This document shows, in pieces, positions 6,531-36,531 of a stretch of DNA of 41,556 nt (position 1 is the first letter of the stretch; every line of letters starts with the position of its first letter). The DNA is from a virus. Taxonomy: Duplodnaviria; Heunggongvirae; Uroviricota; Caudoviricetes. The stretch lies in the IMG/VR virus record IMGVR_UViG_2802429245_000005, one strand, 5' to 3'. The translations under genes and the position numbers were made by a program. The notes under the pieces are model-generated. The model was not told the origin of the DNA. It saw nothing but the letters and a program-made list of their open reading frames with translations, and made no database searches.

Positions 6531-6545
6531 TTACCTTTCAGGTAA
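6531..6545. promoter_or_regulatory. Palindromic operator-like site TTACCTTTCAGGTAA
   Basis: Exact TTACC-N5-GGTAA between the divergent tailspike (start 6426) and gene 6622. Confidence 0.6.
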
Positions 6546-6621
6546 TTTGCAAAACGTGCTGGATAGCAAACAAATTATTTGCTACTGTATAAATATACAG
6601 TTATTGCATGGAGAAGATAAG

Positions 6622-6879
6622 ATGCAGCAGTATCACTATCCACTGGAAGACGGATTTACCGAAAGGATTCACACGCCGGGAGGCGTCAGATCACTGGTGG
6701 AGGGATCGCACTTGATGAAATTACTCCGGGATCTCGATAAGGATGGATTTAATGTCGATGGCCCACTTGCCGAACTGACTGCACTGATTAACTACGTCAC
6801 CAGCTCACAGATGTCTATGCAGGATCTGCAAACACATCTCGACTATTGTGCCGAACAATTACGAAAACAAACCCGGTAA
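6622..6879 (+). CDS. Small protein homologous to the C-terminal domain of the BRO-N antirepressor at 8028-8723
   Basis: ATG at 6622 with GGAGAAG upstream. Aligns with the antirepressor C-terminus (LMKLLRDLDKDGFNVDGPLAELT...DLQTHLDY versus LMNLLNQLQEDGHDVSGAAAELT...DIQTHAEY). Confidence 0.55.
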   Translation: MQQYHYPLEDGFTERIHTPGGVRSLVEGSHLMKLLRDLDKDGFNVDGPLAELTALINYVTSSQMSMQDLQTHLDYCAEQLRKQTR

Positions 6880-6886
6880 ATTTAAA

Positions 6887-6902
6887 GGCCGCAAGAGCGG
6901 CC
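6887..6902. terminator. Hairpin between convergent genes 6622-6879 and 6902-7630 (possible bidirectional terminator)
   Basis: GGCCGC-AAGA-GCGGCC with T-rich flanks on both strands. Confidence 0.4.
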
Positions 6903-7630
6903 TATCGTTTCGCTTTGTGCTCGTCCCAGCACGTTTTGCACCATGCCATTAAGCCGTCCGCATTTTGATTATTAGGGTAAAAGCTGGTTCGTTTTCTGCG
7001 GACATTACAAATTGGGCACCACTTCATATGACGTGTATTCTTTGGGCCATCGAGACACCTTGCACACCACTTAGTCAATCCATCTGGATTTTTTGACGAT
7101 TTCCTGAATTTTTCATATGGAAGGTTTATTCTGCATCGCAAGCACTGCTTGCTACCGCTTGAAACTCTGTTAGCTGATTCTTCTTTTGGCGGCGATACAG
7201 AAGATATTCTTGCTGGCTCTGATACTGCCTGAGGTGCTTTTTTAAATGACTGAGACGATATGTCATCACCAGGGAATCTTCCATGATATGCCGGACGCGT
7301 TGACACTCCAGGTGGAAGCTCAGCTGTAAACGGCTTTGGCTGAATCAGTTGCCTCTCTTTTGCTAACTCCTGCTGTTTATAATATGTCTGGATTACCGCA
7401 CTATCATAAGCAGGAGGTGCGGAAATATTAGGCGCATTACCTCCAGTTTTTTGAAACTGAGTAGAGGTGTGTTCTATCACCTGTGTACGATTAATCGTTA
7501 TCTCCCCATCTTCGGTCTTTATCGTTTTGTTATGATTAACGACCGTACGATCAGAGATCTTAGTCTTGTTCTGGTTGATAACGTAAATAATCACCGTAAC
7601 CACACCAACAACTATCCAGAAAACTTCCAT
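6902..7630 (-). CDS. Membrane-anchored protein with two tandem CxxC...WCxxC zinc-ribbon-like repeats
   Basis: RBS GAGGAAAAG before ATG (7628-7630). N-terminal TM helix, Pro/Ser-rich linker, repeats CLRCR...DGLTKWCARC and CPICN...DGLMAWCKTC. Operator motif at 7651-7665. Confidence 0.6.
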   Translation of the reverse strand: MEVFWIVVGVVTVIIYVINQNKTKISDRTVVNHNKTIKTEDGEITINRTQVIEHTSTQFQKTGGNAPNISAPPAYDSAVIQTYYKQQELAKERQLIQPKPFTAELPPGVSTRPAYHGRFPGDDISSQSFKKAPQAVSEPARISSVSPPKEESANRVSSGSKQCLRCRINLPYEKFRKSSKNPDGLTKWCARCLDGPKNTRHMKWCPICNVRRKRTSFYPNNQNADGLMAWCKTCWDEHKAKR

Positions 7631-7650
7631 TGCTTTTCCTCACAATAACA

Positions 7651-7665
7651 TTACCTTAAAGGTAA
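7651..7665. promoter_or_regulatory. Palindromic operator-like site TTACCTTAAAGGTAA
   Basis: Exact motif 21 nt upstream of the start of minus-strand gene 6902-7630. Confidence 0.6.
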
Positions 7666-7743
7666 TATCTTGCTTTCAGGTGATCAAGCATTAAACGCAA
7701 CCAACCAAATACGGTTGATTTTAATATTTATTCGCGTTTATCA

Positions 7744-7758
7744 TTACCTTTGCGGTAA
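7744..7758. promoter_or_regulatory. Palindromic operator-like site TTACCTTTGCGGTAA
   Basis: Exact motif at the head of the structured leader upstream of the antirepressor gene. Confidence 0.6.
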
Positions 7759-7792
7759 ATTTACATCGCACTCCTCTTGTGCCATAGTAATC

Positions 7793-7816
7793 GGGCACTG
7801 GCAAAATCCAGTGCCG
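7793..7816 (+). other. Perfect 8-bp stem-loop (GGCACTGG / CCAGTGCC) in the antirepressor leader
   Basis: Read directly; lies between the operator at 7744 and the terminator at 7851. Confidence 0.5.
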
Positions 7817-7850
7817 GGATTGGCGTCCCGGATTACTAAAAGGCGCATTC

Positions 7851-7870
7851 ACCGCGCAAGCGGTTTTTTT
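7851..7870 (+). terminator. Intrinsic terminator-like hairpin plus T7 tract in the antirepressor leader
   Basis: ACCGC-GCAA-GCGGT followed by TTTTTTT. Confidence 0.5.
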
Positions 7871-8027
7871 ATGCGTATAGCACGGCCACATTCGTATTAT
7901 GGTGGGCTGTGTGGGGGCACCGAAAGGTGCGCCGGGTCCTTTTAGCCGGTTACGCCAACCCTGCACAGTTCACCACCAACCGATTGGCGTCGGTAGTGGT
8001 GATTAACCAGACTAAAAGGTAACCACT

Positions 8028-8723
8028 ATGACAGCTACAAAAAGCACGTCCATTTTTTCTTTCGAATCCCAAGCCGATATACGGGTAATCGTCATTAATG
8101 GTGAGCCATGGTTTATCGCTTCAGATGTTTGTCGGGCTATAGGCATAGCAAACCATCGAGATGCTGTTCGAAAACTTGATGATGATGAGAAGGGCGTCGC
8201 TTCAACCGACACCCCTGGCGGTGAGCAAGAATCGATCATTATCTCCGAGTCAGGCCTCTACACACTGATCCTCCGCTGCCGCGATGCGGTGACACCAGGC
8301 ACTATCCCCTACCGCTTTCGTAAATGGGTTACAGGTGAGGTTCTTCCTCAGATCCGCCGCACCGGAAGTTACATTAAAAACTCGCTCCCGCAGGAAGAAC
8401 GCATAAAGATGGTTGCCGACCAGGTTGCCAACGCCACGGCGTCAGCAGTAATGCAGGCGATGAAGATAGAGAACAAAACCTACAGCGCCCCGCTGAAGCC
8501 AGGATACCGCAGTCTGATTCACTCGCCGTCTGGTGTTCTCGGCCTGACGGAGAACTCACTGCTGATGAATCTGCTGAACCAGTTACAGGAAGACGGGCAT
8601 GATGTATCGGGCGCGGCGGCGGAGCTGACCACCATGTTCTGCTACATCGTCGGTGTGAGTAAATGCCTGCGTGATATCCAGACGCATGCGGAGTACATCA
8701 ACGACAAGGCTGGGTTCTTCTGA
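8028..8723 (+). CDS. Antirepressor, BRO-N (Ant-type) N-terminal domain plus C-terminal domain
   Basis: N-terminus FSFESQADIRVIVINGEPWFIASDVCRAIGIANHRDAVRKLDDDEKG matches the Bro-N fold signature. RBS AAGG before ATG at 8028. Confidence 0.8.
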   Translation: MTATKSTSIFSFESQADIRVIVINGEPWFIASDVCRAIGIANHRDAVRKLDDDEKGVASTDTPGGEQESIIISESGLYTLILRCRDAVTPGTIPYRFRKWVTGEVLPQIRRTGSYIKNSLPQEERIKMVADQVANATASAVMQAMKIENKTYSAPLKPGYRSLIHSPSGVLGLTENSLLMNLLNQLQEDGHDVSGAAAELTTMFCYIVGVSKCLRDIQTHAEYINDKAGFF

Positions 8724-8789
8724 CGGGCGGCGGCACAGGGATGTGCCTTTAAAATAATCATTGGCGATGTGATGTAGATTCGCGTAATA

Positions 8790-8804
8790 TTACCTTAAAG
8801 GTAA
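8790..8804. promoter_or_regulatory. Palindromic operator-like site TTACCTTAAAGGTAA
   Basis: Exact motif immediately after a -10-like TAATAT (8785-8790) and 27 nt before ATG 8831. Confidence 0.6.
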
Positions 8805-8830
8805 ACCATGTGTTTACATGAGGAGGAGAT

Positions 8831-9040
8831 ATGGGATTTTGGTTCGCTCGTACAAAAACGAGGGATAATGCACCCAGCCCTCAGGCAAAAAATGCAGAAG
8901 TTCCGGCGTCAGCGCAGGTTAACAAGCGTGGTGGAGTATATATCTCATCACAGCAAATTTCTGAGCTTCCTGAGGTTAAGGAGATGCGTCGTCTCGCTGC
9001 TGCAATTGTTAAACAGGATCTTGCCACTGTAAGGAAGTAG
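8831..9040 (+). CDS. Small hydrophilic protein, first gene of an operator-controlled accessory cassette
   Basis: Strong RBS GAGGAGGAG before ATG at 8831. Operator motif at 8790-8804. Stop TAG overlaps the GTG of the next ORF. Confidence 0.55.
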   Translation: MGFWFARTKTRDNAPSPQAKNAEVPASAQVNKRGGVYISSQQISELPEVKEMRRLAAAIVKQDLATVRK

Positions 9041-9906
9041 TGTTGCTAGCTCTTCTAATTATCCCAATCCTGGTTAGCGGTTATATTATGATAACCGCTA
9101 ACCAGTATCATTATTTCCGTTTATACCGACACGAAGGCCAGCTTCTTTATATGAAAGTAGCGGCACTAGGTACATATTGCCTTGTTGCATCAGTAATAAT
9201 TGCAGCCGCTATAAAATATAAATGGCCTGATTTTCACCTAGTTCACGATATGGTGGAAACTTTTAATGTAACATCAAAACCAGAAACAGATAGAATTTAC
9301 ATGTGGCTGCTTCTTCTCTCAGCCACATCCATTTGCTTCTCTTTGTGTTATGTGTCTGTTGTGTGGGTGAAAGATTTTCTTCTTGGTTGTTTTTATAAAC
9401 GTGATATTTACGAGCAAAAAACAGAGGCAATGAAGGCCAGAGTACTGCGAAAAACTTACTCGCAGGGTTCTTTAGACTTACTATTGCTTGATGCTATTGA
9501 ATCGGATCCTAAACGACCAATGCTGATTACTTTATCATCAAACAAAGTGTATGTTGGAATAATAAATGGTTCTGGTGAACCAACGGAAAATCAGGGTCCG
9601 CATCAGCACATATCTTTTGTTCCTTTAATGTCAGGATACAGGAACAAAGAAAACTTATCTGTCACATTCACTAATGCTTATCCAGGAGAAATACAGGTCA
9701 AGCGGACTGCAGCAATAAGAGGAATTAGCAGAAAGAAAGTGCCAGGACTTGAGATCATGGTGTCTATTGACGAAATAAGTTATATATCATGGTTTGATTT
9801 TGAAGTATATAAAGCAACAAATAACAAAGTAGAATCCAGGGGGCACGTTATTCGTGTTACCAAAAATGGAAGAAATATATATCAAAGAAATAGCAAAAAA
9901 GAATAG
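9040..9906 (+). CDS. AT-rich integral membrane protein (three N-terminal TM helices plus soluble C-terminal domain); accessory gene
   Basis: 288 aa ORF. GTG at 9040 is coupled to the upstream stop; alternative ATG at 9088 lies in the loop of an 11-bp inverted repeat. AT-rich by eye. Intrinsic terminator directly after the stop. Confidence 0.6.
   Translation: MLLALLIIPILVSGYIMITANQYHYFRLYRHEGQLLYMKVAALGTYCLVASVIIAAAIKYKWPDFHLVHDMVETFNVTSKPETDRIYMWLLLLSATSICFSLCYVSVVWVKDFLLGCFYKRDIYEQKTEAMKARVLRKTYSQGSLDLLLLDAIESDPKRPMLITLSSNKVYVGIINGSGEPTENQGPHQHISFVPLMSGYRNKENLSVTFTNAYPGEIQVKRTAAIRGISRKKVPGLEIMVSIDEISYISWFDFEVYKATNNKVESRGHVIRVTKNGRNIYQRNSKKE
9074..9101 (+). other. 11-bp perfect inverted repeat around a candidate start codon
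   Basis: TTAGCGGTTAT-ATTATG-ATAACCGCTAA; the ATG at 9088-9090 is in the loop. Confidence 0.5.
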
Positions 9907-9927
9907 CCCGCGCCGCGGGCTTTTTTG
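9907..9927 (+). terminator. Rho-independent terminator after the accessory membrane-protein gene
   Basis: CCCGCG/CGCGGG stem followed by TTTTTT, immediately after stop TAG at 9904-9906. Confidence 0.7.
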
Positions 9928-9998
9928 TGGACGAAACAAAAGTCAGTGCTACACTCATTGACGCCACATTGAGATGGCTTATAGATGGAAATTTCACA

Positions 9999-10160
9999 AT
10001 GAAAAAAGCATTTGCTGCACTGTTCGTTTTGTTGTCTCTGGTAGCTTCAACTCAGGCCTTTGCCGGTCGTTGTCAGCACGACAGCGATACTGCTGCTGAC
10101 GGCTCCCGCTGCGGTGGGCGTTCTGCGGATTCCCGCCCGGGCGGCGGTGGCATCCGTTAA
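9999..10160 (+). CDS. Small secreted Cys-containing peptide (signal peptide plus about 31-aa mature part)
   Basis: Internal ATG at 9999 gives MKKAFAALFVLLSLVASTQAFA followed by GRCQHDSDTAADGSRCGGRSADSRPGGGGIR. RBS is weak. Confidence 0.35.
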   Translation: MKKAFAALFVLLSLVASTQAFAGRCQHDSDTAADGSRCGGRSADSRPGGGGIR

Positions 10161-10189
10161 AAACAAGGCCGCGAAAGCGTCCTGTTTGA

Positions 10190-11041
10190 TCACTGTGCAG
10201 TTTTCGCTGATCGATTTTCAGCTCTAAATTCAAGAACCGTTTCAATATTTCTTTCCTTCAGCATATCAATAACATTTTTATTCATTTGACTATCACTGGT
10301 TAATAACTGGTAAACGTTGCTTCTCTCTTTATCAGAGTTTTCTTTAACAGCTGCTTTGCATGCCAAATGCTTATTGAAATTTTCTACATCGCTAGTACAG
10401 GAATTTACGGCTGCTGATGAAATATCAGACGCTGAAGAAACACCATCATCCAAACGTTTTATAGCATTTTCTATACATGAGTTAAGGGAATAAACGACAA
10501 CTGAGCGATACCCTTCAGACGCACACCATTCTAAATTTCTTGAAGGATCGAGTGGTTTTACTTCGCTGGATTGAATTAACTTGTCAAAAACTGACTTATA
10601 TTCAATCTGTTTTTTATCTATAGCCCATACTTCAGTAGCTGATTTATAATTCCCCGTATGCCTATTAACATCAAATCCATGTTTTATAAGCAAATCTGCC
10701 CATGAAAGATTTATTGATTCATTGTTATGAGGCCATTTTCCTGTCAGAACCGCCCCCATAGACCCCATATATCCGCCATATGATGGTATAGCACCATGGC
10801 TCAGTAACTTCTCAGCAACCACAGGGCAATTAATTACATAAGAGGCGTAAAGCCCATTCCATAAAGCCCCTCTATAGTAATCGCCACGATTAGGTTCTTT
10901 TAAGTCGATAGCCTTTGATAATTGTTCACACGTTTTGCATGCATCAAAGTTATCCTTATTGCATTGCAATGAACTGGCAGCTGTAGGATTTACAGAGACT
11001 ATTGAAAGCACTATGCCAAAAAACAAATTTATTTTTTTCAT
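10190..11041 (-). CDS. AT-rich secreted/periplasmic protein of unknown function
   Basis: N-terminal signal peptide MKKINLFFGIVLSIVSVNPTAAS. Start codon sits 1 nt after the stop of the upstream 1129-aa virion protein gene. AT-rich by eye. Confidence 0.6.
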   Translation of the reverse strand: MKKINLFFGIVLSIVSVNPTAASSLQCNKDNFDACKTCEQLSKAIDLKEPNRGDYYRGALWNGLYASYVINCPVVAEKLLSHGAIPSYGGYMGSMGAVLTGKWPHNNESINLSWADLLIKHGFDVNRHTGNYKSATEVWAIDKKQIEYKSVFDKLIQSSEVKPLDPSRNLEWCASEGYRSVVVYSLNSCIENAIKRLDDGVSSASDISSAAVNSCTSDVENFNKHLACKAAVKENSDKERSNVYQLLTSDSQMNKNVIDMLKERNIETVLEFRAENRSAKTAQ

Positions 11042-11042
11042 C

Positions 11043-18218: not shown

Positions 18219-20689
18219 CAGAATCCCCCAACAGTAAGGCGAGGAATAACGGCAAGAACAGACAGCGGCAACGGGTCAAGCTGACGGATTTTTACACGTC
18301 CGTTTTTGCCCCAGTTACTGTCCAGTTTCACTTCTACTTTTCCGGTAGCATCATCAACAGGATCATCGTAGAACTCGAATTCACGCTGTGGATATTCGTA
18401 CCATTTACCGCCAGGCGTAGTCGCCCAGATGCCGCGGCTGGCATTCACAACCAGAGTAACGGAGGGGATCACCTGTTTTTTGTCCAGCAGCGTTTCCTGT
18501 CCGTTAATGTTGATATCCAGTGTTTCGAATTCAGCAGTTATTGGCAGACCGATGTGCACTACAGCCCCCGGAGATTCCAGCGTGACGGCACCTCCGGAAA
18601 CAACTTTCTGTGGCTCAACATTCGCATCAGAAAGAATGTTTACGGTCTGTCCTTCAAGATGAGACAGGCCTCCAAATGTCCGGCGCGCCATCTGCCAGTT
18701 CGTGGTGGCCGCATTCCTGAGGGATGGCGGGAGGTTCCTGTTGGCACGAACCACTACAGCGGTATTGCTGGTTACAGAAATAATGTCGCAACGTAATTCT
18801 TTTGACACTTCATCGCCAGTATCAGGATCAGTTCCAGCATAAGGGAACTGTAGTTGCGCACCGACATCACTACTGGTGAAGTACGCACCACCAGAAACAC
18901 TGATTGTATATTCCGCGCGGTAATCCCATTCACCAGAACCACCAGTGATGGTCATCGTTCTGTCAGACGTATTTCTTCCATCATAGCTAAGGCCAGAATC
19001 AACAAAGAAAGCGTCTTCATCGCTGGTAAATAAACGGCTGGACAGTCTCTCGATGTATCTCACTGCTTGCCCGTTAACGGTTCGGTTAACGACGAAATAC
19101 ACCGCATCTTCATTGCCTTCGCTGATACTGCATGTGCTTTCATATTTTCCGGTACTGGACTGTGGTGCCCATGCAAAAACCTGCTGATCACGCAAATAGG
19201 TCATCACCAGTAATTTACCGTCATCACGAATGCAGAAGGCGCTGGAGTAAGGGACAATCGAGAAGCACCAGTCAACAATGCTGTGCTTCTGAAAAAGATG
19301 ATTGGCAAGGATGGTCAGGTCGTTCCCCTGATAGCCGTCAACATCGAATGAGTAGGCCAGATCACGGACAACGCTGCCTTTCTCCTGGACGAACAAAGCA
19401 ATATTCGCCACGGCAATTGGCGGGACGTTGCTTGAGCCATTTGATCCCTGAGAGCTGAATGCAAATGATGATGGGGTTAACACTTTGTTCTGGTCGCCGG
19501 TGATGACGTACTCACCTCCGGAAGTCAGCGCCACCAGCGAACCAACATCAATCAGGTGACGGATCTCATTAACCTGACGCCCGGCATAGGTGTAGATAAT
19601 TCTGTCGTCATCCTGCGTAGGATTGCTTTTGCCAAAATCCTTATAATCCCCAGTACGGCTGGCCCAGATAGTCTGAGGGAACGCAGTCGATGCGGCGAAG
19701 TAAAGACGTTGTTGATAATAAACAACAGTGCCAGGATAACCATTAACACTGTTCCAGGCATATTTAGCCCATTTATAGCTGGCATTATCCTCGCCAACGA
19801 CCTGCGAAGGGATATAGGAAATCACCTCAGCAGTTGCAGTAGTGCCATTTACAGCAGTTATACGGGCAATGCCAAAACCACTGTGCAGATACTCCCACTC
19901 AATGCCAGTATCATCATCACCGGATCCGCCCCAGCCATCCCATGATGTGCCTTCTGTATGCGAAGGGCGCAAAGTGCCTGTTTTGCCTGCTGTAACGGCG
20001 CGATAGTAGTTACTGTCTGCACGGCGAATATCACCAATCGACGTACTCTTACTGGTTTCCCATACCGGCACTGAATCCACTGCAGGCTGTTCCAGATAGA
20101 ACAATTTGCCTACCTGCTCCGCGCCAAAAATAGAGGCGCTTGCCGTTAACGTAATTGTCCCGGTGCTGGCGCTGGCATAAACCGTCACTGACTCGTCAAT
20201 ATTGATATCTTCAAATGGCCCGTTCTTCGTTACCACATCAACCAGTTGCCAGTTGTCATGAGCATAGCGGCGCAACTCTTTCGGCGGGTATGCCGGATGA
20301 ACCAGCGTAAGCACGTCGGCGCTTTGCGTGAATTTAATTCGGAACAGATCGGCTTCAGTATATGGCGTGGCAATTTCATAAATAACATTGCTGCTGTTCA
20401 GCACCAACGCACCATCTTTGATAACGCGCATGTACTGGTGTCCGAACTCCAGAGCATAGGTCTGAACAGTCGAGAACTGGAACGGGATCAGGCGGCATTT
20501 CCGATTTGGGTATTTGGCGGCACCGACAAAACGCGTACCCGGTCGATTCTCAACGCCGCCATACTGCCGCACGATAAAGTTATCGCACTTGCGCAAAGCC
20601 ACCTGGTACTTCGCCATGTCGATACGACCGTACAACGACGGTCCAATCTCACCACCGGCAAAGCTGGGCTGGATCCAACTGATAGCCAT
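18218..20689 (-). CDS. Large tail/virion structural protein
   Basis: 823 aa in the late operon between head and internal-virion genes. RBS GAGG before ATG at 20687-20689. Confidence 0.7.
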   Translation of the reverse strand: MAISWIQPSFAGGEIGPSLYGRIDMAKYQVALRKCDNFIVRQYGGVENRPGTRFVGAAKYPNRKCRLIPFQFSTVQTYALEFGHQYMRVIKDGALVLNSSNVIYEIATPYTEADLFRIKFTQSADVLTLVHPAYPPKELRRYAHDNWQLVDVVTKNGPFEDINIDESVTVYASASTGTITLTASASIFGAEQVGKLFYLEQPAVDSVPVWETSKSTSIGDIRRADSNYYRAVTAGKTGTLRPSHTEGTSWDGWGGSGDDDTGIEWEYLHSGFGIARITAVNGTTATAEVISYIPSQVVGEDNASYKWAKYAWNSVNGYPGTVVYYQQRLYFAASTAFPQTIWASRTGDYKDFGKSNPTQDDDRIIYTYAGRQVNEIRHLIDVGSLVALTSGGEYVITGDQNKVLTPSSFAFSSQGSNGSSNVPPIAVANIALFVQEKGSVVRDLAYSFDVDGYQGNDLTILANHLFQKHSIVDWCFSIVPYSSAFCIRDDGKLLVMTYLRDQQVFAWAPQSSTGKYESTCSISEGNEDAVYFVVNRTVNGQAVRYIERLSSRLFTSDEDAFFVDSGLSYDGRNTSDRTMTITGGSGEWDYRAEYTISVSGGAYFTSSDVGAQLQFPYAGTDPDTGDEVSKELRCDIISVTSNTAVVVRANRNLPPSLRNAATTNWQMARRTFGGLSHLEGQTVNILSDANVEPQKVVSGGAVTLESPGAVVHIGLPITAEFETLDININGQETLLDKKQVIPSVTLVVNASRGIWATTPGGKWYEYPQREFEFYDDPVDDATGKVEVKLDSNWGKNGRVKIRQLDPLPLSVLAVIPRLTVGGF

Positions 20690-26395: not shown

Positions 26396-26485
26396 ATCAA
26401 TGACTCCGTACGCAATTAAATTATTACCAATTTAACCACATATGATTTATTTATCGTAGATAGTTGACATTTAACGCACGAATTA

Positions 26486-26500
26486 TTACCTTTCAGGTAA
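26486..26500. promoter_or_regulatory. Palindromic operator-like site TTACCTTTCAGGTAA
   Basis: Exact motif next to TTGACA (26464-26469), upstream of the tRNA region. Confidence 0.6.
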
Positions 26501-26822: not shown

Positions 26823-26899
26823 GTGGCATTAGCTCAGCTGGACAGAGCAACCGCCTTCTAAGCGGTTGGTCGCAGGTTCGAATCCTGCATGCCACGCCA
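26823..26899 (+). tRNA. tRNA-Arg, anticodon UCU (reads AGA), phage-encoded
   Basis: Cloverleaf read directly: acceptor GTGGCAT/ATGCCAC, D-arm GCTC-AGCTGGACA-GAGC, anticodon stem ACCGC/GCGGT with loop CTTCTAA, T-arm GCAGG-TTCGAAT-CCTGC, discriminator G and encoded CCA. Confidence 0.85.
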
Positions 26900-26985: not shown

Positions 26986-27058
26986 CAGCAGGACGCCATT
27001 GCGATGACTTCATGCTGTAAACCAGTACAGCCACGGAAGGCATAACTCATTGCTTCCA

Positions 27059-27087
27059 GTTCGCCCGGTTCGCCGGGCATTTTTTTG
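27059..27087 (+). terminator. Rho-independent terminator (second, downstream of the tRNA)
   Basis: GCCCGG-TTCG-CCGGGC followed by ATTTTTTT. Confidence 0.7.
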
Positions 27088-27102: not shown

Positions 27103-27117
27103 TTACCTTGAAGGTAA
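27103..27117. promoter_or_regulatory. Palindromic operator-like site TTACCTTGAAGGTAA
   Basis: Exact motif 33 nt upstream of ATG 27150, downstream of the tRNA terminators. Confidence 0.6.
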
Positions 27118-27149
27118 GATAACAAAAACATTTAACATCTGGTTTAGAC

Positions 27150-27755
27150 ATGTTCGAGCAATTTAAAGAGATCGCATCATCGGCTATTAGCACAACGTCA
27201 GAGAGAGTCCGCAACCCAGCACTTGGGGCATTTGTGTTTTCGTGGTGTTCTTTTAACTGGAATCCACTATTATTTTTATTCTTCAGTAAGTCAGGAATTG
27301 AAGAAAAAATAAATTATATATCTTCCCATAGTGATGCGTACCACTCACTCTTATATCCAGCTTTATGTGCATTCGCGCTGTGTGTAATAGTTCCATGGTT
27401 TAACAATATAGTGGTGATGTTTCAAAAAATTCCACTACAGAACATCGATAACTTCAAACACAACAAAAGCCTCAGGGATGTTAAAAACGCCATAGAATTG
27501 CGTAAGCTTGAGGCACAAAGGGACATTACATACGACAGAGTTAAGGTTGAGTTTGAGTCTGAGATTCAATTCTATAAAAATGATTTAATCAAGCACCAAG
27601 AGTCTTTGAATTCTTTTTTGCAGGAAAGAGATTCCCTTATTGAAAAAATAATGGCGCTTGAAAAAGAACTTGCAGAAGAAAAAATAAAATCCAATACCAG
27701 AATTGCAAATAAGTTTAACTCAAGGAACAATCGCAACACAGACAATGCTGCTTAA
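27150..27755 (+). CDS. AT-rich membrane protein with C-terminal coiled coil; accessory gene
   Basis: 201 aa on the strand opposite to the flanking late genes. Two hydrophobic segments then a heptad-like Glu/Lys-rich tail. Operator motif at 27103-27117. Confidence 0.6.
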   Translation: MFEQFKEIASSAISTTSERVRNPALGAFVFSWCSFNWNPLLFLFFSKSGIEEKINYISSHSDAYHSLLYPALCAFALCVIVPWFNNIVVMFQKIPLQNIDNFKHNKSLRDVKNAIELRKLEAQRDITYDRVKVEFESEIQFYKNDLIKHQESLNSFLQERDSLIEKIMALEKELAEEKIKSNTRIANKFNSRNNRNTDNAA

Positions 27756-27759
27756 AACT

Positions 27760-29229: not shown

Positions 29230-29822
29230 TGATTACCATCCTGACGTTCTTTGAGTCGCTTCCTGGCTGCTGCTATGCGATCAGCAATTGTCACATTCAC
29301 ATTAACATCCAGACGTTCTTTGAACGCGTTGACATCAACATGCTTACCAATCAGCTCAAGGTTCTTCACCTTGTCAGGCCATTTAATTTTTTTGAGGATT
29401 GTCTCTATCGAATCCTCGTTCATGTTCATGATGGTCGATGACAGATCAAAGCCACTAAGCGTAGTACGCCAGATTTTCGGCCACTCACGGATTGGTTTAA
29501 GGCTCCCATCGTCGTTGAGGATGTCGATCACGTCCATCTGGTCGATCTCCACCAGGCGCATGAGAACGTAATCAGCACTGACGCGCATTCGTTTGTTGCG
29601 CTCCTCCATCAACTCGGCAATCCGTTTCTGAATGCGTTCATCGCGCATCATGACACTGGCTTTAACTGCCGCTGTATTTGGGGAGAATCCTGCGTTAATC
29701 GCAGCCTGAGTCTGGTTTTCAGGCGTTTTGATGTATGACTGGCAATAAGCCTCCTGCATTGCTGTGAGCGGCTTAAATTGCGTTGATTTGCGTTTATAGG
29801 TTTTAGGTTCAGCAGGCATCAT
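29226..29822 (-). CDS. Terminase small subunit
   Basis: ATG ATG at 29817-29822 with GGTGG upstream. 4-nt stop/start overlap with the large subunit. Confidence 0.65.
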   Translation of the reverse strand: MMPAEPKTYKRKSTQFKPLTAMQEAYCQSYIKTPENQTQAAINAGFSPNTAAVKASVMMRDERIQKRIAELMEERNKRMRVSADYVLMRLVEIDQMDVIDILNDDGSLKPIREWPKIWRTTLSGFDLSSTIMNMNEDSIETILKKIKWPDKVKNLELIGKHVDVNAFKERLDVNVNVTIADRIAAARKRLKERQDGNQ

Positions 29823-29839
29823 AACCACCGTGGTAATTG

Positions 29840-29854
29840 TTACCGTTGTGGTAA
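29840..29854. promoter_or_regulatory. Palindromic operator-like site TTACCGTTGTGGTAA at the late-operon start
   Basis: Exact motif between the minus-strand terminator (29866-29891) and the terminase small subunit start (29822). Nested GGTAA/TTACC half-sites around it (29832-29861). Confidence 0.55.
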
Positions 29855-29865
29855 TAGTACCATGC

Positions 29866-29891
29866 AAAATAAAGCCGCCATAGTTGGCGGC
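29866..29891 (-). terminator. Rho-independent terminator between the early region and the terminase gene
   Basis: 7-bp perfect stem GCCGCCA / TGGCGGC followed on the minus strand by UUUAUUUU. Confidence 0.6.
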
Positions 29892-29940
29892 AGTATTCAA
29901 AACCCATCAAATTCATCATGCATAATCTACTCGTGACATG

Positions 29941-30279
29941 TCACACTATTAATTTCGTTTCATGCCAGCCTTTAGTCACCCAGCATTGCGAGTCACCATT
30001 ACACGGGCATGAATTAACTGGAACTCTCTCGCCGCACTTACCGCAACGTTTTCTGCTGATCGATTTTATACGCCCGCGCACGCGTGCATCATCCTGGCGG
30101 ATCAGTAACGCTATATACTCACCAAATTCGTAAGGCGCACGCCCGGGGCGACGCGTGGCACAGTTACGCTCCAGCATTTCAATTTCCTGAGCATCAAGCA
30201 CAATTTCCAGCTTACGCACACCAGATGCAGCTTGTCTGGCTCTCTGAGCGGCTTTGCGCTCTGCTGCTGATTTAGCCAT
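29941..30279 (-). CDS. Small DNA-binding-like protein with C-terminal Cys-rich zinc ribbon; candidate late-gene regulator
   Basis: Basic/Ala-rich N-terminus (MAKSAAERKAAQRARQAASGVRKLEIVLDAQEIEMLE) and C-terminal CGKCG...CPCNGDSQC. Last early gene before the terminator and terminase. Confidence 0.5.
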   Translation of the reverse strand: MAKSAAERKAAQRARQAASGVRKLEIVLDAQEIEMLERNCATRRPGRAPYEFGEYIALLIRQDDARVRGRIKSISRKRCGKCGERVPVNSCPCNGDSQCWVTKGWHETKLIV

Positions 30280-31660: not shown

Positions 31661-31661
31661 C

Positions 31662-32222: not shown

Positions 32223-32526
32223 TGGGTGCCTCCTTTGCTGGGCTTTCTAACTTCTGAGTGGTTGTATCAAACTCAAACAACTTAACCACGTCATCAAACA
32301 GGACATAATCTCCATCAGAATCTTCAGTCATGTCAGCGCCACAATCCTGACCGCACGAGTCACAACCATCCATATCAAGCTCGTATCGCTTGAGGTTTGC
32401 GATATTTGATAAATTCAGCGCCAGTACAGCTAGGTCATAAACCTCGTCAGCGGTATACCCTGCACCATGTCCATACATTTCAATGCGGGATATGATTTCT
32501 TCTACCCGTTGTTTTGTGATTGTCAT
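32209..32526 (-). CDS. Small acidic early protein
   Basis: GGGAGGTGAG before ATG at 32524-32526. Overlapping stop/start with both neighbours. Confidence 0.45.
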   Translation of the reverse strand: MTITKQRVEEIISRIEMYGHGAGYTADEVYDLAVLALNLSNIANLKRYELDMDGCDSCGQDCGADMTEDSDGDYVLFDDVVKLFEFDTTTQKLESPAKEAPSEQD

Positions 32527-32984
32527 TTTTGCTCACCTCCCTGTTCTTCCAGAAAAATACGCATAGCCTCAAGCATCTCTTCGGTGTCATACGGTGACAA
32601 CTTGTCACGCAGGATGTGTTCAATGCTGTTAATGAACTTGCGGATTGCTTTGCGTTCAATTTCAGCCAGAAAAGCATCGGTGGCTGGCATATTTCCTGTT
32701 GCCTTCATGGCCTCCAAAATAACCAGAACGCCATCTCGCCCAACCTCATCAGCGATAATCTCGGTGTTGTCGCCAACAACATCGCAGAATGCCTGAACTG
32801 CCTTACGAGCCAGCTCATTCTCCGCCGCAAGCGCATTAGCACGCGCCAGTTGCACTTCCAGTTGCGTTGCCAAATCGCTGATCAGCTTTGCCACACTGCG
32901 CATATCAACGGCACCACATTCTGCTTTCAGTTCCGAAGCCATCTCATGCCCGGCGGCAACTAACCCTTTGATATTACTTTCCAT
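32523..32984 (-). CDS. Early protein of unknown function
   Basis: RBS GAGGG before ATG at 32982-32984. 153 aa, helical and acidic. Confidence 0.5.
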   Translation of the reverse strand: MESNIKGLVAAGHEMASELKAECGAVDMRSVAKLISDLATQLEVQLARANALAAENELARKAVQAFCDVVGDNTEIIADEVGRDGVLVILEAMKATGNMPATDAFLAEIERKAIRKFINSIEHILRDKLSPYDTEEMLEAMRIFLEEQGGEQK

Positions 32985-33045
32985 CTTTACCCTCGCTTAT
33001 CCACATAACTTATTGATTACATTGATAACTAAAAAGATCGTCGAT

Positions 33046-33390
33046 TCAGAACTCTTCGATGTTCCAGCCATCACCCGCTTTCTTTGTCTTAACCGTTACC
33101 CCGATGATGCGAAACGGGTACTGGTCTGCTGCGACTTTGGTTTTCACCCTGGCGTCGTCGGTCCAGAAACCTTTCACTTCGTGTAGTTCCATCTCGCCGG
33201 TGGCGAGCATCACAGCAAAATCGGGCGTATAGAACGTGTTGTCAGCTAACCGCAGCTTGATACCCTCGAATCGATACCAGGCGATTTCCCCTGCACGTTT
33301 ACGCAGCTCAAGGTGCTGGCAATACGCAGATTCTGTTTTGTTCATCTGGCCTGTTTTGAGTCGACCAAGAGCCTGTATCTGTTTTCTCAT
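33046..33390 (-). CDS. Small PD-(D/E)xK-type nuclease (VRR-NUC-like)
   Basis: Motifs YTPDF ... ELHEVKG (PD...ExK). 114 aa. Two operator motifs upstream at 33394-33408 and 33456-33470. Confidence 0.55.
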   Translation of the reverse strand: MRKQIQALGRLKTGQMNKTESAYCQHLELRKRAGEIAWYRFEGIKLRLADNTFYTPDFAVMLATGEMELHEVKGFWTDDARVKTKVAADQYPFRIIGVTVKTKKAGDGWNIEEF

Positions 33391-33393
33391 GAT

Positions 33394-33408
33394 TTACCCC
33401 TGAGGTAA
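33394..33408. promoter_or_regulatory. Palindromic operator-like site TTACCCCTGAGGTAA
   Basis: Exact motif directly upstream of the start of gene 33046-33390. Confidence 0.55.
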
Positions 33409-33455
33409 TTAAAAACCACATAAGACACGAAATCAATAGAGTTTAGAATATTTTG

Positions 33456-33470
33456 TTACCAAACAGGTAA
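33456..33470. promoter_or_regulatory. Palindromic operator-like site TTACCAAACAGGTAA
   Basis: Exact motif between the P-like gene end and gene 33046-33390; 62 bp from the previous site. Confidence 0.55.
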
Positions 33471-33507
33471 TTATCAAGACGTAAAAAAATGCGCTATCGC
33501 GCTGGTA

Positions 33508-34284
33508 TTACTTGATAAATCCTGCCGCCTTTCCCCGCCTGTATTCCTCCATCAGCCACTGCGCCGGTGTTATTCCCCCAAGGGTGGCGGCGTTAGGCAT
33601 GCACCCGAAACTTCGCCCTGGTGGATGGTAAACGTCTCTCCCTGTGTCCGGAGGTGTACTCATGGGCTCTGGCTTTGCCTGTATGCTGATCACCGGATCG
33701 GGTATCTGCTGTCCGGAAGCCACCTTTTTCGCCCAATCATCGAGCAGCCTGCGCGCGTGTTTCTCAACCTCAATCTCGCTAAGCTGGCGCTGATACATTG
33801 CACGGCGGGTATCACATACGACCCAGTACATAACCGGATGCCGCCACGGGAATCTTTCGGGACCACCAGGATATAAACTTTTTTCCTTGCTGTACCGGTG
33901 AAACTCCGCCATCACATCGTCAATGGTGACGCCAAGAACCATCTTGCTGTCTTTACACCACTTGATAAATTGCCCTGGCGACGGCCAGAACGGAGATTCA
34001 CTGGCGCGGGCGTGGCGCATACCAGCGTTAACCTGTTCCATTGTAGTGATCCCATTCTCCAGAAACGCAAGCATCCATTGCTTACGGAATTCATTAAGTT
34101 TGTTCTGCTCCCTTATGGTCGAAACGCTTGCAGGAAATGCAGCCTGTAACTGGACAAATAGTTCATTGAAAATTCTAGCGACCTGCTCCTTTTTGCCATT
34201 GCTGTCACGCCGCTCTTCATGCACAGCAACACCATGCTCACGTAAGCGATCGTACTCATTGAGAAGTTCTGGAGTTGATTTCAT
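33508..34284 (-). CDS. P: Replication protein P-like helicase loader
   Basis: Strong resemblance to lambda P over IFNELFVQLQAAFPAS...RKQWMLAFLENGITTMEQVNAGMRHARASESPFWPSPGQFIKWCKD. RBS AAGGGG before ATG. Confidence 0.8.
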   Translation of the reverse strand: MKSTPELLNEYDRLREHGVAVHEERRDSNGKKEQVARIFNELFVQLQAAFPASVSTIREQNKLNEFRKQWMLAFLENGITTMEQVNAGMRHARASESPFWPSPGQFIKWCKDSKMVLGVTIDDVMAEFHRYSKEKSLYPGGPERFPWRHPVMYWVVCDTRRAMYQRQLSEIEVEKHARRLLDDWAKKVASGQQIPDPVISIQAKPEPMSTPPDTGRDVYHPPGRSFGCMPNAATLGGITPAQWLMEEYRRGKAAGFIK

Positions 34285-35086
34285 CCCACACCCCTTCTAT
34301 CCAGTCAGTGTTATTCCAGTCAAGCTCATCGCTTTTCCCGACGTTTTTTGATTTTCCCCTGATATGATTTACGTGCCTGGCGAATTTTTGTTCCCACTGA
34401 ACCTGCGTGAACACTTTGCCCTCAGCCATCCAGTAATCCCGGAATGCAGCAAGTTCAGCAGGTGTAAATTCCGGTTCCGGCAGGGCCGTTCCCCACAGCG
34501 CAGCACGCCGTCGAAAATCCGGCGACGGATGCCAGCCATCGGTCATCGGAAATTTCCCAATAGGTTCACTCAGGCCATCCAGAAATGCAGGTTCTGCCAC
34601 CTGCAACGGCGTACCGTTCGCTTCACTGGTCGGATCACTCTCGCGCGCGTGTGCTATGTGTGGGGTTTTATATATATCTTCCTCTTCCTCTTCCTCTGGT
34701 AACTCTTTTTGTAACGCTGTTGGCGTTACTTTTTGCGTTACTCGTTTTCGATGCTCTGCCACTCTTCTATTCGTAAGTGCACGTTTTTTCGATGATTCTC
34801 CATTGTGTCGCTCAAAGTTTGGAAGAATTAGTTTGCCGTCATGATAAGCAAGCCATCCGACGCTAATGAGGGCGTCAGCAAATCCTGTAATAAAAGCGAG
34901 TCTATCAAGTACTCCTTTTGTAACGCTGCCAGCGTTACCGTCTATTGTTTGCTGGTCAGCCCATGCCCATATACGAACCAGCTTTCCAAGAACAGCATCT
35001 GGATCAATACCCAGAATTTCTGCTATCTGAAAAATTTCAGGTTTATCAGGAGTGATAACTTCAACCTTAATCCAGCTGCTTGCCAT
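34256..35086 (-). CDS. Replication initiation/organiser protein with DnaT-like C-terminal domain (O-equivalent)
   Basis: C-terminus GKFPMTDGWHPSPDFRRRAALWGTALPEPEFTPAELAAFRDYWMAEGKVFTQVQWEQKFARH matches the DnaT C-terminal domain. GAGGGG before ATG at 35084-35086. Confidence 0.7.
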   Translation of the reverse strand: MASSWIKVEVITPDKPEIFQIAEILGIDPDAVLGKLVRIWAWADQQTIDGNAGSVTKGVLDRLAFITGFADALISVGWLAYHDGKLILPNFERHNGESSKKRALTNRRVAEHRKRVTQKVTPTALQKELPEEEEEEDIYKTPHIAHARESDPTSEANGTPLQVAEPAFLDGLSEPIGKFPMTDGWHPSPDFRRRAALWGTALPEPEFTPAELAAFRDYWMAEGKVFTQVQWEQKFARHVNHIRGKSKNVGKSDELDWNNTDWIEGVWDEINSRTSQ

Positions 35087-35279
35087 AGGTTTCCCCTCTT
35101 GCACTCTTTAGTGCACAAGCAAATTCATTACGATGGCGGTTGGCGCTATTCATTGCACATTCAACACATGTTCCGTTCAGAACATACCTTTCAGAGAGAT
35201 GGCCGTGACGGCACCGCTTTCCTGTGAAATAGCGATTTAACCCGGCTTTTGCGGCCTCCATTCTGGTTACTATCTTCAA
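35067..35279 (-). CDS. Small Cys/His-rich zinc-binding-like protein
   Basis: 70 aa with CRHGH...CVEC. Start is either TTG 35279 (AAGGGG upstream) or ATG 35261. Confidence 0.45.
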   Translation of the reverse strand: MKIVTRMEAAKAGLNRYFTGKRCRHGHLSERYVLNGTCVECAMNSANRHRNEFACALKSARGETYGKQLD

Positions 35280-35357
35280 TTTTTCCGCCCCTTTTTGTTA
35301 TTGATATTGGCTATTTTGCACAATTGGAAAATTTGATCAACCAGATTTGGTTTTTTA

Positions 35358-35372
35358 TTACCTTTGAGGTAC
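35358..35372. promoter_or_regulatory. Operator-like site TTACCTTTGAGGTAC (one mismatch)
   Basis: Between the terminator after the cro-like gene and the 70-aa zinc-binding-like gene. Confidence 0.4.
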
Positions 35373-35380
35373 GAATAGAT

Positions 35381-35406
35381 ATGAAAAGACCGCCGGATGG
35401 CGGTCT
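35381..35406 (-). terminator. Rho-independent terminator after the cro-like gene
   Basis: 8-bp perfect stem AGACCGCC / GGCGGTCT with a U-rich tail on the minus strand, 22 nt after the cro-like stop. Confidence 0.6.
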
Positions 35407-35427
35407 ACAGAGGGTTGTGGATGGATA

Positions 35428-35658
35428 TCATGAGTAGAAGAAGTATGCCAGTTCTGCTTTTGAGCGCAGCCATTGTCTTGTTTTACAGGCTTTAAAAAGC
35501 CCATTCATCAATACCTTACCTGGCATTTTGCGCTTACCTGTTAAGTGAGTCTGGATATAGTGACTCGTCGTTCCGGCTTCCTGTGCGAAGGCTTCACGCT
35601 CATCCGGAGTAAGTGCAAGCCAGTGCTTTTTGAAATCGAAATGTCCGTTATCGCTCAT
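35428..35658 (-). CDS. Cro-like small HTH regulator, first gene of the leftward early operon
   Basis: 76 aa with HTH-like LTPDEREAFAQEAGTTSHYIQTHLTGKR. Divergent from the repressor-like gene. Intrinsic terminator directly downstream. Confidence 0.6.
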   Translation of the reverse strand: MSDNGHFDFKKHWLALTPDEREAFAQEAGTTSHYIQTHLTGKRKMPGKVLMNGLFKACKTRQWLRSKAELAYFFYS

Positions 35659-35694
35659 AGCTATTGCCTGATATTTATTTCAGATAATAAATAT

Positions 35695-35709
35695 TCACCC
35701 ATAAGGTAA
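35695..35709. promoter_or_regulatory. Operator-like site TCACCCATAAGGTAA (one mismatch) in immunity region
   Basis: First of three sites between the divergent cro-like (start 35658) and repressor-like (start 35813) genes. Confidence 0.45.
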
Positions 35710-35725
35710 CAAAAATCAAGGATAG

Positions 35726-35740
35726 TTACCTATGAGGTGC
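35726..35740. promoter_or_regulatory. Operator-like site TTACCTATGAGGTGC (two mismatches) in immunity region
   Basis: Second site; degenerate right half. Confidence 0.35.
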
Positions 35741-35742
35741 AT

Positions 35743-35757
35743 TTACCTGTTGGGTAA
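35743..35757. promoter_or_regulatory. Palindromic operator-like site TTACCTGTTGGGTAA in immunity region
   Basis: Exact motif; third site, nearest the repressor-like gene. Confidence 0.6.
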
Positions 35758-35812
35758 TATTGCTTTAAATTGAATCATCTACTGATTCATATATGAGGCG
35801 ATTTTCCAGAAA

Positions 35813-36397
35813 ATGAAAAGTATCCAGGACGTCCGCAGGCAAAATCTCAACGACTTGATCGACCGTGAATTCAATGGTGTTCAGACGCGGATGGCAGAAA
35901 AACTTGGAACTCAGGCAAATCTGGTAAACCGCTGGGCTCTTGGCAAGAAGGTTATCGGCGACCAGGTTGCGCGAAAAATTGAAGCTGCCGCCAATAAACC
36001 CCGTAACTGGCTTGATATCGATCGCTCGCTTTCTCAGGAAGGTTTTCAGCCTGTCGGCCCAAGCGACATTGGTCAGCTGGCGGCTCACAACCTGGAACGC
36101 TGGATGAGCGAAAGCCGCGACCTTTCAACACAGGGAAAACTTCACCGCGCATCCGGCGTCGCCCAGGTAACAATCAGCCGCCTGTTAAACAATGAGGTCA
36201 GCGTTTCCATTTCCACCCTGGAGAATGTTGCATCCGCATTCGGGCGTCACGGCTATGAATTACTGATTCACCCGCACGACCCTGCGACCATCAACTATGA
36301 CCGCTCGCGCTACGCATTGTTACCCGAAACCGAGAAAGCAAAGATCGAAAGTTACATTGAATTTGTCATCAACCAGAACGAAAAAAATAAACAATAA
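35813..36397 (+). CDS. Repressor-like protein with two XRE-type HTH domains (candidate lysogeny repressor)
   Basis: 194 aa with two HTH-like segments and no S24 peptidase domain. Monocistronic: strong terminator at 36418-36444. Operator motifs cluster between it and the cro-like gene. Confidence 0.7.
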   Translation: MKSIQDVRRQNLNDLIDREFNGVQTRMAEKLGTQANLVNRWALGKKVIGDQVARKIEAAANKPRNWLDIDRSLSQEGFQPVGPSDIGQLAAHNLERWMSESRDLSTQGKLHRASGVAQVTISRLLNNEVSVSISTLENVASAFGRHGYELLIHPHDPATINYDRSRYALLPETEKAKIESYIEFVINQNEKNKQ

Positions 36398-36417
36398 AAC
36401 TATAGTTTTCAGCAAGT

Positions 36418-36444
36418 AAGCCGCCTCATGGCGGCTTTTTTATT
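36418..36444 (+). terminator. Rho-independent terminator after the repressor-like gene
   Basis: AAGCCGCC-TCAT-GGCGGCTT followed by TTTTATT. Confidence 0.75.
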
Positions 36445-36454
36445 GCCATCAAGA

Positions 36455-36469
36455 TTACCTTATGGGTAA
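36455..36469. promoter_or_regulatory. Palindromic operator-like site TTACCTTATGGGTAA
   Basis: Exact motif about 20 bp upstream of TTGACA (36489-36494), ahead of the recombination operon. Confidence 0.6.
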
Positions 36470-36488
36470 TTTTTTTAGCTCATATCTA

Positions 36489-36516
36489 TTGACATCAAAC
36501 CAAATACGCATAATCA
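36489..36516 (+). promoter_or_regulatory. Sigma70-like promoter candidate for the recombination operon
   Basis: TTGACA at 36489-36494 and -10-like CATAAT (36509-36514) or TAATCA (36511-36516). Spacer length is non-optimal, so assignment is tentative. Confidence 0.4.
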
Positions 36517-36531
36517 TTACCCCAACGGTAA
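36517..36531. promoter_or_regulatory. Palindromic operator-like site TTACCCCAACGGTAA
   Basis: Exact motif immediately downstream of -10-like CATAAT/TAATCA (36509-36516); paired with the site at 36455. Confidence 0.6.

Follow-up and report, generated by a model that had tools for sequence, protein, structure and literature searches.

A palindrome dispersed through an ε15/φV10-type prophage as the probable operator of its Rep repressor

The palindrome TTACC-N5-GGTAA is dispersed over the 41,556-nucleotide IMG/VR virus record IMGVR_UViG_2802429245_000005 (the whole stretch, here called the window), which is a temperate podovirus of the ε15/φV10 type (genus Uetakevirus) and a prophage of Escherichia coli. 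As a whole, the observations are best explained if the palindrome is the operator of the ε15/φV10-type prophage repressor Rep (194 amino acids; 35813..36397, plus strand), a reading of the sequence that we hold to be very probable. Motif statistics, site positions, synteny, conservation, and protein homologies were computed, whereas the domain roles of Rep, its tetramer, and its release by the antirepressor Ant are taken from the literature. The immunity region is 98% identical to that of Escherichia phages vB_EcoP_ZX5 (ZX5), HEMP4, and TL-2011b, and the window has the lysis genes at its left end and the start of the integrase gene at its right end.

Placement of the palindrome at transcription units

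A pattern scan of the window located 12 exact copies, at 6531, 7651, 7744, 8790, 26486, 27103, 29840, 33394, 33456, 35743, 36455, and 36517 (coordinates are those of the first base of the 15-bp motif, and the operator role of all sites is predicted). These are the copies that had been listed in an earlier reading made without database searches (the sequence-only reading), whose chance expectation of ~0.04 exact copies was also correct. No exact copy occurred in 100 dinucleotide-preserving shuffles, and with up to one mismatch allowed there were 16 matches versus 0.75 expected. The three degenerate copies of that reading are present, with one mismatch each at 35358 and 35695 and two at 35726. 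Its list lacked a one-mismatch copy at 29822, located 18 bp from 29840; these four weaker copies adjoin exact ones. Another one-mismatch copy, at 3000 within a gene, is probably due to chance. Among the 5-N5-5 palindromes of the window, TTACC alone exceeds two copies (12 versus at most 2 for the others). The extended form ATTACC-N5-GGTAAT, described earlier as frequent, held up in part: the flanking A is present in 14 of 24 symmetrized positions and absent from the remainder.

The assertion that every exact copy is intergenic proved right for all 12 after gene starts had been reset by homology, with TerS starting at 29822 as in ε15 and Ant at 6622 as in SPC32H (the mechanical open reading frame [ORF] 6499-6879 is really the 85-amino-acid Ant from 6622). 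Before this correction, a few sites lay inside long ORFs of the mechanical ORF list. Since intergenic DNA makes up 7.8% of the window, the probability of this placement is ~5e-14; of the 24 matches with two mismatches, 22 fall within genes, as expected by chance. In the φV10 record, terS is annotated from position 41, which puts operators (e.g., 87-101) within the coding sequence. A start of the ε15 type, directly after the operators, gives a TerS of 198 amino acids and is more likely to be correct for φV10.

The sites precede early, late, and accessory units on both strands, with three clustered between the divergent cro-like and repressor genes, as the sequence-only reading had it. This three-operator switch (35695..35757) comprises 35695, 35726, and the exact copy 35743, and site 35695 is in the spacer of the minus-strand cro promoter-like site 35712-35684. 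The pair 36455 and 36517 (36455..36531), 62 bp apart, brackets a P_L-like promoter (36489-36517; TTGACA-17-AATCAT), in which operator 36517 begins at the last base of the -10 hexamer and operator 36455 lies upstream of the -35 hexamer. The one-mismatch operator 35358..35372 is located just downstream of the cro terminator (35406-35387) and before the gp40-like and replication genes, a position that is conserved in φV10 and Enterobacter phage Tyrion. In a second pair spaced by 62 bp, 33394 and 33456 (33394..33470), site 33456 fills the spacer of the minus-strand promoter-like site 33477-33450, and site 33394 is on the ribosome-binding region of the DUF1064 gene. The tandem operators 29822 and 29840 (29822..29854) abut the minus-strand terS start codon at 29822 and are downstream of a terminator (29891-29874). 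Operator 26486..26500, which overlaps a plus-strand TTGACA-17-TACCTT, is flanked by divergent units, with gp3 and the head genes (minus strand) on one side and a plus-strand unit on the other, and operator 6531..6545 lies between the tailspike gene (minus strand, start 6426) and ant (plus strand, start 6622). A terminator is followed by operators at three junctions (cro to 35358, the P gene to 33456/33394, and the gp49-like regulator gene, 29941-30279, to 29840/29822), so that each segment of the lytic program appears to be separately gated.

Four exact sites (7651, 7744, 8790, and 27103) are in accessory DNA that is absent from ε15. Operator 7651..7665, which is specific to the window lineage, is 20 bp upstream of orf242 (6902-7630, minus strand; phrog_6762), whose product has a zinc-ribbon/Lar-like C terminus. 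Operator 7744..7758 starts at the last base of the -10 hexamer of the plus-strand promoter-like site 7715-7744 (TTGATT-18-TATCAT), operator 8790..8804 is directly upstream of orf74/orf69 and orf288 (phrog_3630, no assigned function), and operator 27103..27117 is located just past a terminator and 32 bp upstream of accessory orf201 (27150-27755, plus strand; phrog_4780). Positions 7650-7665 and 8789-8804 share the identical 16-mer ATTACCTTAAAGGTAA and flank a 1.1-kb module with isrK-like and C4 RNAs and a Bro-N protein; these operators might double as recombination joints for exchange of the module.

In three scanned regions, 12 promoter-like sites were predicted, and 4 or 5 of them abut or overlap operators. 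By eye, TGGTACTAT followed by TACC at terS has a geometry like that of the scanner-placed promoter/operator sites, TAATAT is followed by TACC at 8790, a -35 hexamer is followed after 17 nucleotides by TACCTT at both 26486 and 7651, and GGTAAGAT could serve as a -10 hexamer at 27103. From these matches we infer that the same three promoter/operator geometries recur at terS, 8790, 26486, 7651, and 27103. Alignments of five regulatory regions from six genomes showed, within spacers that had otherwise diverged, a small number of conserved islands made up of the half-sites, the -35 hexamers (TTGACA at P_L, TTGATT at P_R, and TTGAC upstream of gp3), and the LexA box upstream of ant.

Five relatives were chosen by repressor similarity and not by motif, namely, φV10, ε15, SPC32H, Tyrion, and Klebsiella phage BUCT711, whose Rep proteins are 100%, 42%, 42%, 78%, and 45% identical, respectively, to that of the window. 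The motif scan of related phages suggested by the sequence-only reading gave 8 to 11 exact copies in each, at the same landmarks and in syntenic positions. The GenBank record of ε15 (AY150271.2) already carries seven protein_bind features labeled "repressor / lysogeny," each of them ATTACC-N5-GGTAAT: terS and gp3 are each preceded by one, another separates the tailspike gene from gp19 (the Ant homologue), three follow the repressor gene, and the seventh comes behind the replication genes. Six exact sites of the window (29840, 26486, 6531, 36517, 36455, and 33456) are syntenic with annotated ε15 sites. In ε15 coordinates, the terS tandem corresponds to 12-27, 26486 to 2931-2947, 6531 to 19895-19911, the P_L pair to 32616-32632 and 32554-32570, and the pair 33394 and 33456 to 35907 and 35969, so that terS, gp3, ant/tailspike, the P_L pair, and the post-replication pair all have ε15 counterparts. 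Window sites 33394 and 35743 match copies that were left unannotated in the ε15 record. The novelty implied earlier for the dispersed operators therefore does not stand, as the same palindrome is annotated in ε15 and the repressor belongs to the structurally characterized SPC32H Rep/Ant family.

Spacing is conserved as well. In the six genomes, two operator pairs per genome are exactly 62 bp apart, with one pair at 63 bp. A scan of IMG/VR for two motifs 62 bp apart, in which chance matches are negligible because 20 bases are specified, returned at least 120 viral loci. Among the matches listed, 98 carry a full-length Rep homologue (40% to 100% identity) in the fetched flank, and 19 more of the 120 pair loci listed are recognizably of the same family with Rep outside the flank (117 of 120 in total).

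These data bear on two explanations that do not involve a prophage repressor. The palindromes might work at the RNA level, as hairpins for attenuation, processing, or termination, and not as protein-binding DNA: each site can form a stem of 5 to 7 bp, and some sites are in 5' leaders or beside terminators. The predicted stems are of low stability (-3.2 to -5.2 kcal/mol) and without T-tracts, and transcription in a useful orientation would not be expected for the many sites located within promoter hexamers or upstream of them. Moreover, the arms are invariant and do not covary among the 59 exact and 32 one-mismatch sites of the six genomes, with pairing kept in only 5 of the 32 single changes. 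We give this explanation practically no credence.

Equally hard to credit is that the sites are targets of a host transcription factor or of restriction-modification or methylation or serve as recombination linkers. The phage does encode an adenine methylase (39449-40111), the identical 16-mers at 7651 and 8790 flank the accessory module, and the palindrome also occurs in the CI/Cro switches of three low-GC phages that are unrelated. A modification target, however, would not wholly avoid coding DNA, the geometry relative to the -10 and -35 hexamers is conserved, and the motif is tied to genomes encoding Rep and Cro (the 117 of 120 listed pair loci). Equal frequency in coding DNA or in unrelated genomes would have spoken against the sequence-only reading; the exact copies avoid genes, and in the control record PH444, the 50 kb without homology to the window contains one copy, versus seven in the homologous part of the same record.

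In the three low-GC (Firmicute-type) contigs (L009, 3793-4142; L075, 323-423; L124, 6563-6663), three to five copies of ATTACC-N5-GGTAAT are located between CI-like XRE repressor and Cro-like genes. Comparison of their CI and Cro proteins with the Rep N-terminal domain and the window Cro-like protein gave no meaningful similarity; the contigs are thus uninformative about the reader of the palindrome and may represent convergent use of it.

Rep as the predicted reader of the palindrome

Rep has the three-domain architecture of the SPC32H repressor, as judged by its full-length match to PDB entry 5D50_A (residues 1-190, E = 4e-42); its C-terminal part also matches the fragment 5D4Z, which was crystallized separately. 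In secondary accounts, SPC32H Rep is described as having an N-terminal DNA-binding domain, a middle dimerization domain, and a C-terminal domain for tetramerization and Ant binding (PMC9986798) and as a tetramer in which two N-terminal domains, each contributed by a different dimer, read a palindromic site (PMC9638917). The repressor of ZX5 is 100% identical to the window Rep, and its overexpression left no free phage and lowered the transcripts of endolysin by 99.99% and of holin by 99.97% (PMC9782041). The sequence-only reading had named the 35813-36397 protein as the natural binder of the palindrome, and both the SPC32H Rep homology and the identity to the ZX5 repressor point to it as the most likely one.

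The same reading had let one Rep monomer read the whole palindrome, with its two helix-turn-helix (HTH) domains each on one half-site. Each half of the protein does have an HTH-like Pfam match, a weak YdaS/Cro-like one at residues 21 to 61 and a strong HTH_3 one at residues 106 to 147. The two domains are unrelated in sequence, whereas the site is perfectly two-fold and therefore fits two identical domains and not two different ones. According to the secondary accounts, the middle HTH-like domain serves dimerization (PMC9986798) and the palindrome is bound by N-terminal pairs (PMC9638917). Between the φV10 and ε15 types, the N-terminal domain is 53% identical and the middle domain 34%, yet the operator is invariant. 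In addition, a tblastn search of the phage collection gave homologues that share only the N-terminal domain with Rep; though devoid of the middle domain, they too are accompanied by TTACC/GGTAA palindromes. The cI protein of Pseudomonas PseuP_224 shares only this domain with Rep (39% identity) and has an S24 autocleavage domain in place of the others; its genome (L126, 2421-2474 and 3297-3336) carries ATTACC-CGTA-GGTAAT and TTACC-TGTT-GGTAA directly upstream of cI and two copies downstream, all with a 4-nucleotide spacer. The repressor of Moraxella phage Mcat9 likewise combines a Rep-like N-terminal domain (36% identity) with S24, and TTACC-N5-RRTAA-like repeats are present in its switch region. 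One HTH domain per half-site is thus a part of the earlier proposal that finds no support, and we regard it as very improbable.

Among 54 distinct Rep proteins of the family, the N-terminal domain is the best conserved, with 22 of 72 residues invariant, including N-L-V-N-R-W; this result is only suggestive, because the set was selected by motif. Another homologue search gave only proteins of at least 52% identity, which were of no use for covariation. In phages of Escherichia, Salmonella, Klebsiella, and Enterobacter, the Rep sequences are down to 40% identity, yet the sites remain exactly TTACC-N5-GGTAA; it is mainly the dimerization and Ant-binding domains that have diverged. Constraint is oddly spread over the switch: when the φV10 type is compared with the ε15/SPC32H type, Ant is strongly conserved, most of its 83 aligned residues being identical, and the operator does not vary, but the C-terminal part of Rep, which is the target of Ant, is only 34% to 45% identical.

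Several observations weigh against Rep as the reader of a network controlling every unit. The total counts of promoter-like sites are not above the shuffle expectation, and several promoter assignments are our own consensus matches; the scanner output is no proof by itself, and it is the geometry conserved across clades that carries the argument. The ε15 protein_bind features may be bioinformatic predictions only, and the repression of lysis transcripts in ZX5 could be indirect. The lysis cluster of the window is not preceded by any site with up to two mismatches, although the relatives have a one-mismatch site at that place, and the "every unit" of the sequence-only reading is therefore an overstatement, while its decentralized operator network is borne out by the placement of the sites. 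Finally, a Cro-like protein of 76 amino acids (35428..35658, minus strand), an alternative or additional reader of the sites, co-occurs with Rep and the motif in every genome examined.

This protein belongs to an HTH-type family annotated as "transcriptional repressor" (phrog_35), and its gene is divergent from rep across the three-operator cluster. It might be the main reader of the dispersed sites, as a lytic-phase modulator, with Rep acting only at the switch region. Its homologues extend to Mcat9 (E = 3.5e-8), with only a weak transitive link to PseuP_224, whose opposite strand has an unannotated Cro-like ORF of 76 amino acids with its start at 2390. As the Rep-like N-terminal domain is found together with a Cro-like homologue, co-occurrence cannot prove Rep rather than Cro as the reader. 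In lambdoid switches, Cro and CI share operators. The late and accessory sites, however, suit a repressor that maintains lysogeny and not a weak early-lytic one, and overexpression of Rep alone shuts off lysis gene transcription in ZX5 (PMC9782041). The 62-bp pairs also fit a tetramer, the form in which Rep is placed on palindromic sites in PMC9638917. A main role for the Cro-like protein is accordingly improbable in our judgment; it is possible as the sole reader, which is less parsimonious than Rep, and shared binding of Rep and the Cro-like protein at O_R, by analogy, is likely and compatible with Rep as the reader of the network.

With Rep as that reader, the circuit may be outlined as follows. 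In the lysogen, Rep would bind each ATTACC-N5-GGTAAT by a symmetric pair of N-terminal HTH domains, each of about residues 1 to 75; the half-site centers are 10 bp apart and would therefore be on one helix face. As the predicted operators overlap the -10 hexamer, spacer, or start region of putative sigma-70-type promoters or sit just past terminators between operons, one protein could shut off the lytic units directly: P_L, P_R/cro, the replication and late-early segment, terS-terL, the head genes, the tailspike gene, the accessory genes, and two antirepressor modules. Rep would occupy every site, and the terminator-proximal ones might act as roadblocks. One Rep tetramer probably clamps both sites of a 62-bp pair, ~six helical turns, since Rep is tetrameric and two promoters are bracketed by exact 62-bp pairs.

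A second conserved element consists of a half-site, N5, and AACCACATA(T/A)G (on the minus strand, CATATGTGGTT-N5-GGTAAT). Copies at 6480-6501, 26423-26444, and 33404-33424 precede the tailspike gene, the head genes, and the DUF1064 operon. The copy ahead of gp3 hardly varies among the six genomes, and the element may serve as a late promoter or as the site of an activator. A distance of exactly 62 bp separates operator 26486 from the lone half-site at 26424. A one-mismatch site, TTACC(T/C)TAAAGGTAT, is located ~57 bp upstream of the int start in four relatives (L001, the φV10 record, 26870; L002, 26882; L003, 26960; L004, 28568), a position beyond the right end of the window, and its conservation suggests that int is under Rep control too.

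More tentatively, and with more doubt than confidence, these threads might be joined: the dispersed operators would have frozen the DNA code of the genus, with immunity specificity shifted to the repressor/antirepressor interface, and Rep tetramers would clamp promoters via 62-bp micro-loops. One such loop would join 26486 to the half-site 26424 in the conserved head gene element AACCACATATG (at 26434, and also present at 6491), making late gene control a composite of Rep and a late activator.

Antirepressor modules, accessory units, and window ends

The small antirepressor gene ant (6622..6879, plus strand; 85 amino acids) encodes a homologue of SPC32H Ant (PDB 5D50_E, E = 2.7e-46). Just upstream is the LexA-box-like sequence CTGTATAAATATACAG (6585..6600), a perfect CTGT-N8-ACAG that is conserved in all six genomes compared, so that by sequence both Ant and a LexA box at its promoter are present. 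In SPC32H, ant is reportedly repressed by LexA, and Rep is said not to be cleaved via RecA. Induction would by this scheme not proceed through Rep cleavage; SOS inactivation of LexA would be expected to release Ant, which would strip Rep from the DNA.

A second antirepressor module is located beside this SPC32H-type Ant. It comprises an isrK-like Hfq small RNA (7795-7870, plus strand; Rfam RF01394, 77.9 bits), a C4 antisense RNA (7895-7980, plus strand; Rfam RF01695, 77.7 bits versus a gathering score of 45), and a Bro-N antirepressor gene (8028..8723, plus strand) that is 99% identical to φV10 p23. Both RNAs are downstream of the promoter-like site 7715-7744, which is overlapped by operator 7744 and would drive their transcription under operator control. 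The layout resembles that of the repressor-controlled c4-icd-ant operon of P1 immI and of the Gifsy-1 isrK-anrP locus, and by its sequence the module would be of the P1 immI/Gifsy isrK-anrP type. ORF4 of ZX5, which the ZX5 authors overexpressed, is likewise a Bro-N protein (PMC9782041).

The plus-strand TTGACA-17-TACCTT overlapped by operator 26486 points at a tRNA-Arg(UCU) gene (26823..26899, plus strand) and at the terminator 27063-27078; the tRNA gene lies between this operator and the terminator. It is oriented opposite to the late genes, and SPC32H has a tRNA-Arg at the same place. Because the tRNA gene overlaps it, the φV10 p04-like ORF is doubtful and may not be a real gene. A second LexA-box-like sequence, CTGTAAACCAGTACAG, is found at 27015-27030, between the tRNA gene and the terminator.

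The right end of the window coincides with the int start codon. Positions 1-1074 contain two secreted or lipoprotein-like ORFs that resemble host flank, and no copy of the ZX5 att core (attgagtgggaatgatt) was found in the window.

Comparison with known repressor systems

The system belongs to the Rep-operator immunity of ε15 and SPC32H, of which it is a clean new example, and would function as a decentralized network of the P1 kind. As the same sites are annotated in ε15, it is a rediscovery and establishes no new regulatory principle. The window and ε15 share the genus, the identical palindrome, and its dispersed placement before terS, gp3, tailspike/ant, P_L, and the post-replication operon. 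Rep is 42% identical to ε15 gp38, and the window has extra operators before the accessory genes (7651, 7744, 8790, and 27103), whereas ε15 has a third P_L site and a lysis cluster site that the window lacks. The ε15 record does not annotate the O_R sites of that phage, nor one member of a pair. SPC32H has a full-length Rep homologue, a close Ant homologue with a LexA-box-like site upstream, and 10 exact motif copies at the same positions as in the window, but the second antirepressor system (isrK-like RNA, C4 RNA, and Bro-N protein) sets the window apart from it.

No operators are defined in the φV10 record or the ZX5 paper, no genome-wide operator map of SPC32H was found in the accessible literature, and a full-text literature search for the motif, outside of which the ε15 and SPC32H primary papers lay, gave no relevant match. 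New here are the full operator map of the φV10/ZX5 lineage, the invariant 62-bp pairs, the operators on accessory units, and the persistence of the half-site among repressors that differ greatly in architecture and among Reps with only 40% identity. By this map, acquired accessory genes, a tRNA gene, and the second antirepressor module would all have come under the control of one repressor, and the invariant pairs offer a simple handle on how the unusual tetrameric Rep engages DNA. φV10 itself is used as a reporter phage for O157.

Of the two analogies drawn in the sequence-only reading, that with P1 C1 is apt in logic and wrong as family membership. In P1, the C1 repressor, which is not of the XRE-type HTH class, acts on many dispersed asymmetric 17-bp operators. 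As is predicted for the window, a single repressor of P1 acts on operators scattered in large number, and one of these is at the promoter of an antisense RNA/antirepressor module, of which the immI-like C4 RNA module described above may be the counterpart. Unlike those of P1, the sites of the window are perfect palindromes, read in the proposed circuit by the XRE-like domain of a tetramer. No C1 homologue was found, the PDB matches of Rep being only 5D50 and 5D4Z, and Rep is of the XRE/HTH_3 type.

The analogy with the stoperators of mycobacteriophage L5 is weaker, because the sites of the window are symmetric and mostly overlap promoters. The L5 stoperators, bound by gp71, are asymmetric and orientation dependent and block elongation, and tens of them occur across the genome in short intergenic gaps. 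The genome-wide spread of repressor sites in short intergenic gaps is common to both, and at 29822/29840, 33394, and 35358, which are past terminators or on ribosome-binding regions, a roadblock role as in L5 is conceivable. Most sites of the window nevertheless overlap -10 or -35 hexamers. With symmetric sites and an XRE-type repressor, the system is a member of neither the P1 C1 nor the L5 stoperator family.

The switch region itself resembles in layout that of λ, which also has three graded operators between the divergent repressor and cro genes, operators at the leftward early promoter, and, as proposed here for Rep, an oligomeric repressor that bridges separated sites. In λ, however, no operators are found at late or accessory units, CI is cleaved via RecA, and bridging extends over 2.4 kb, whereas in the window operators are placed at late and accessory units, induction would proceed via Ant, and bridging would span 62 bp around one promoter.

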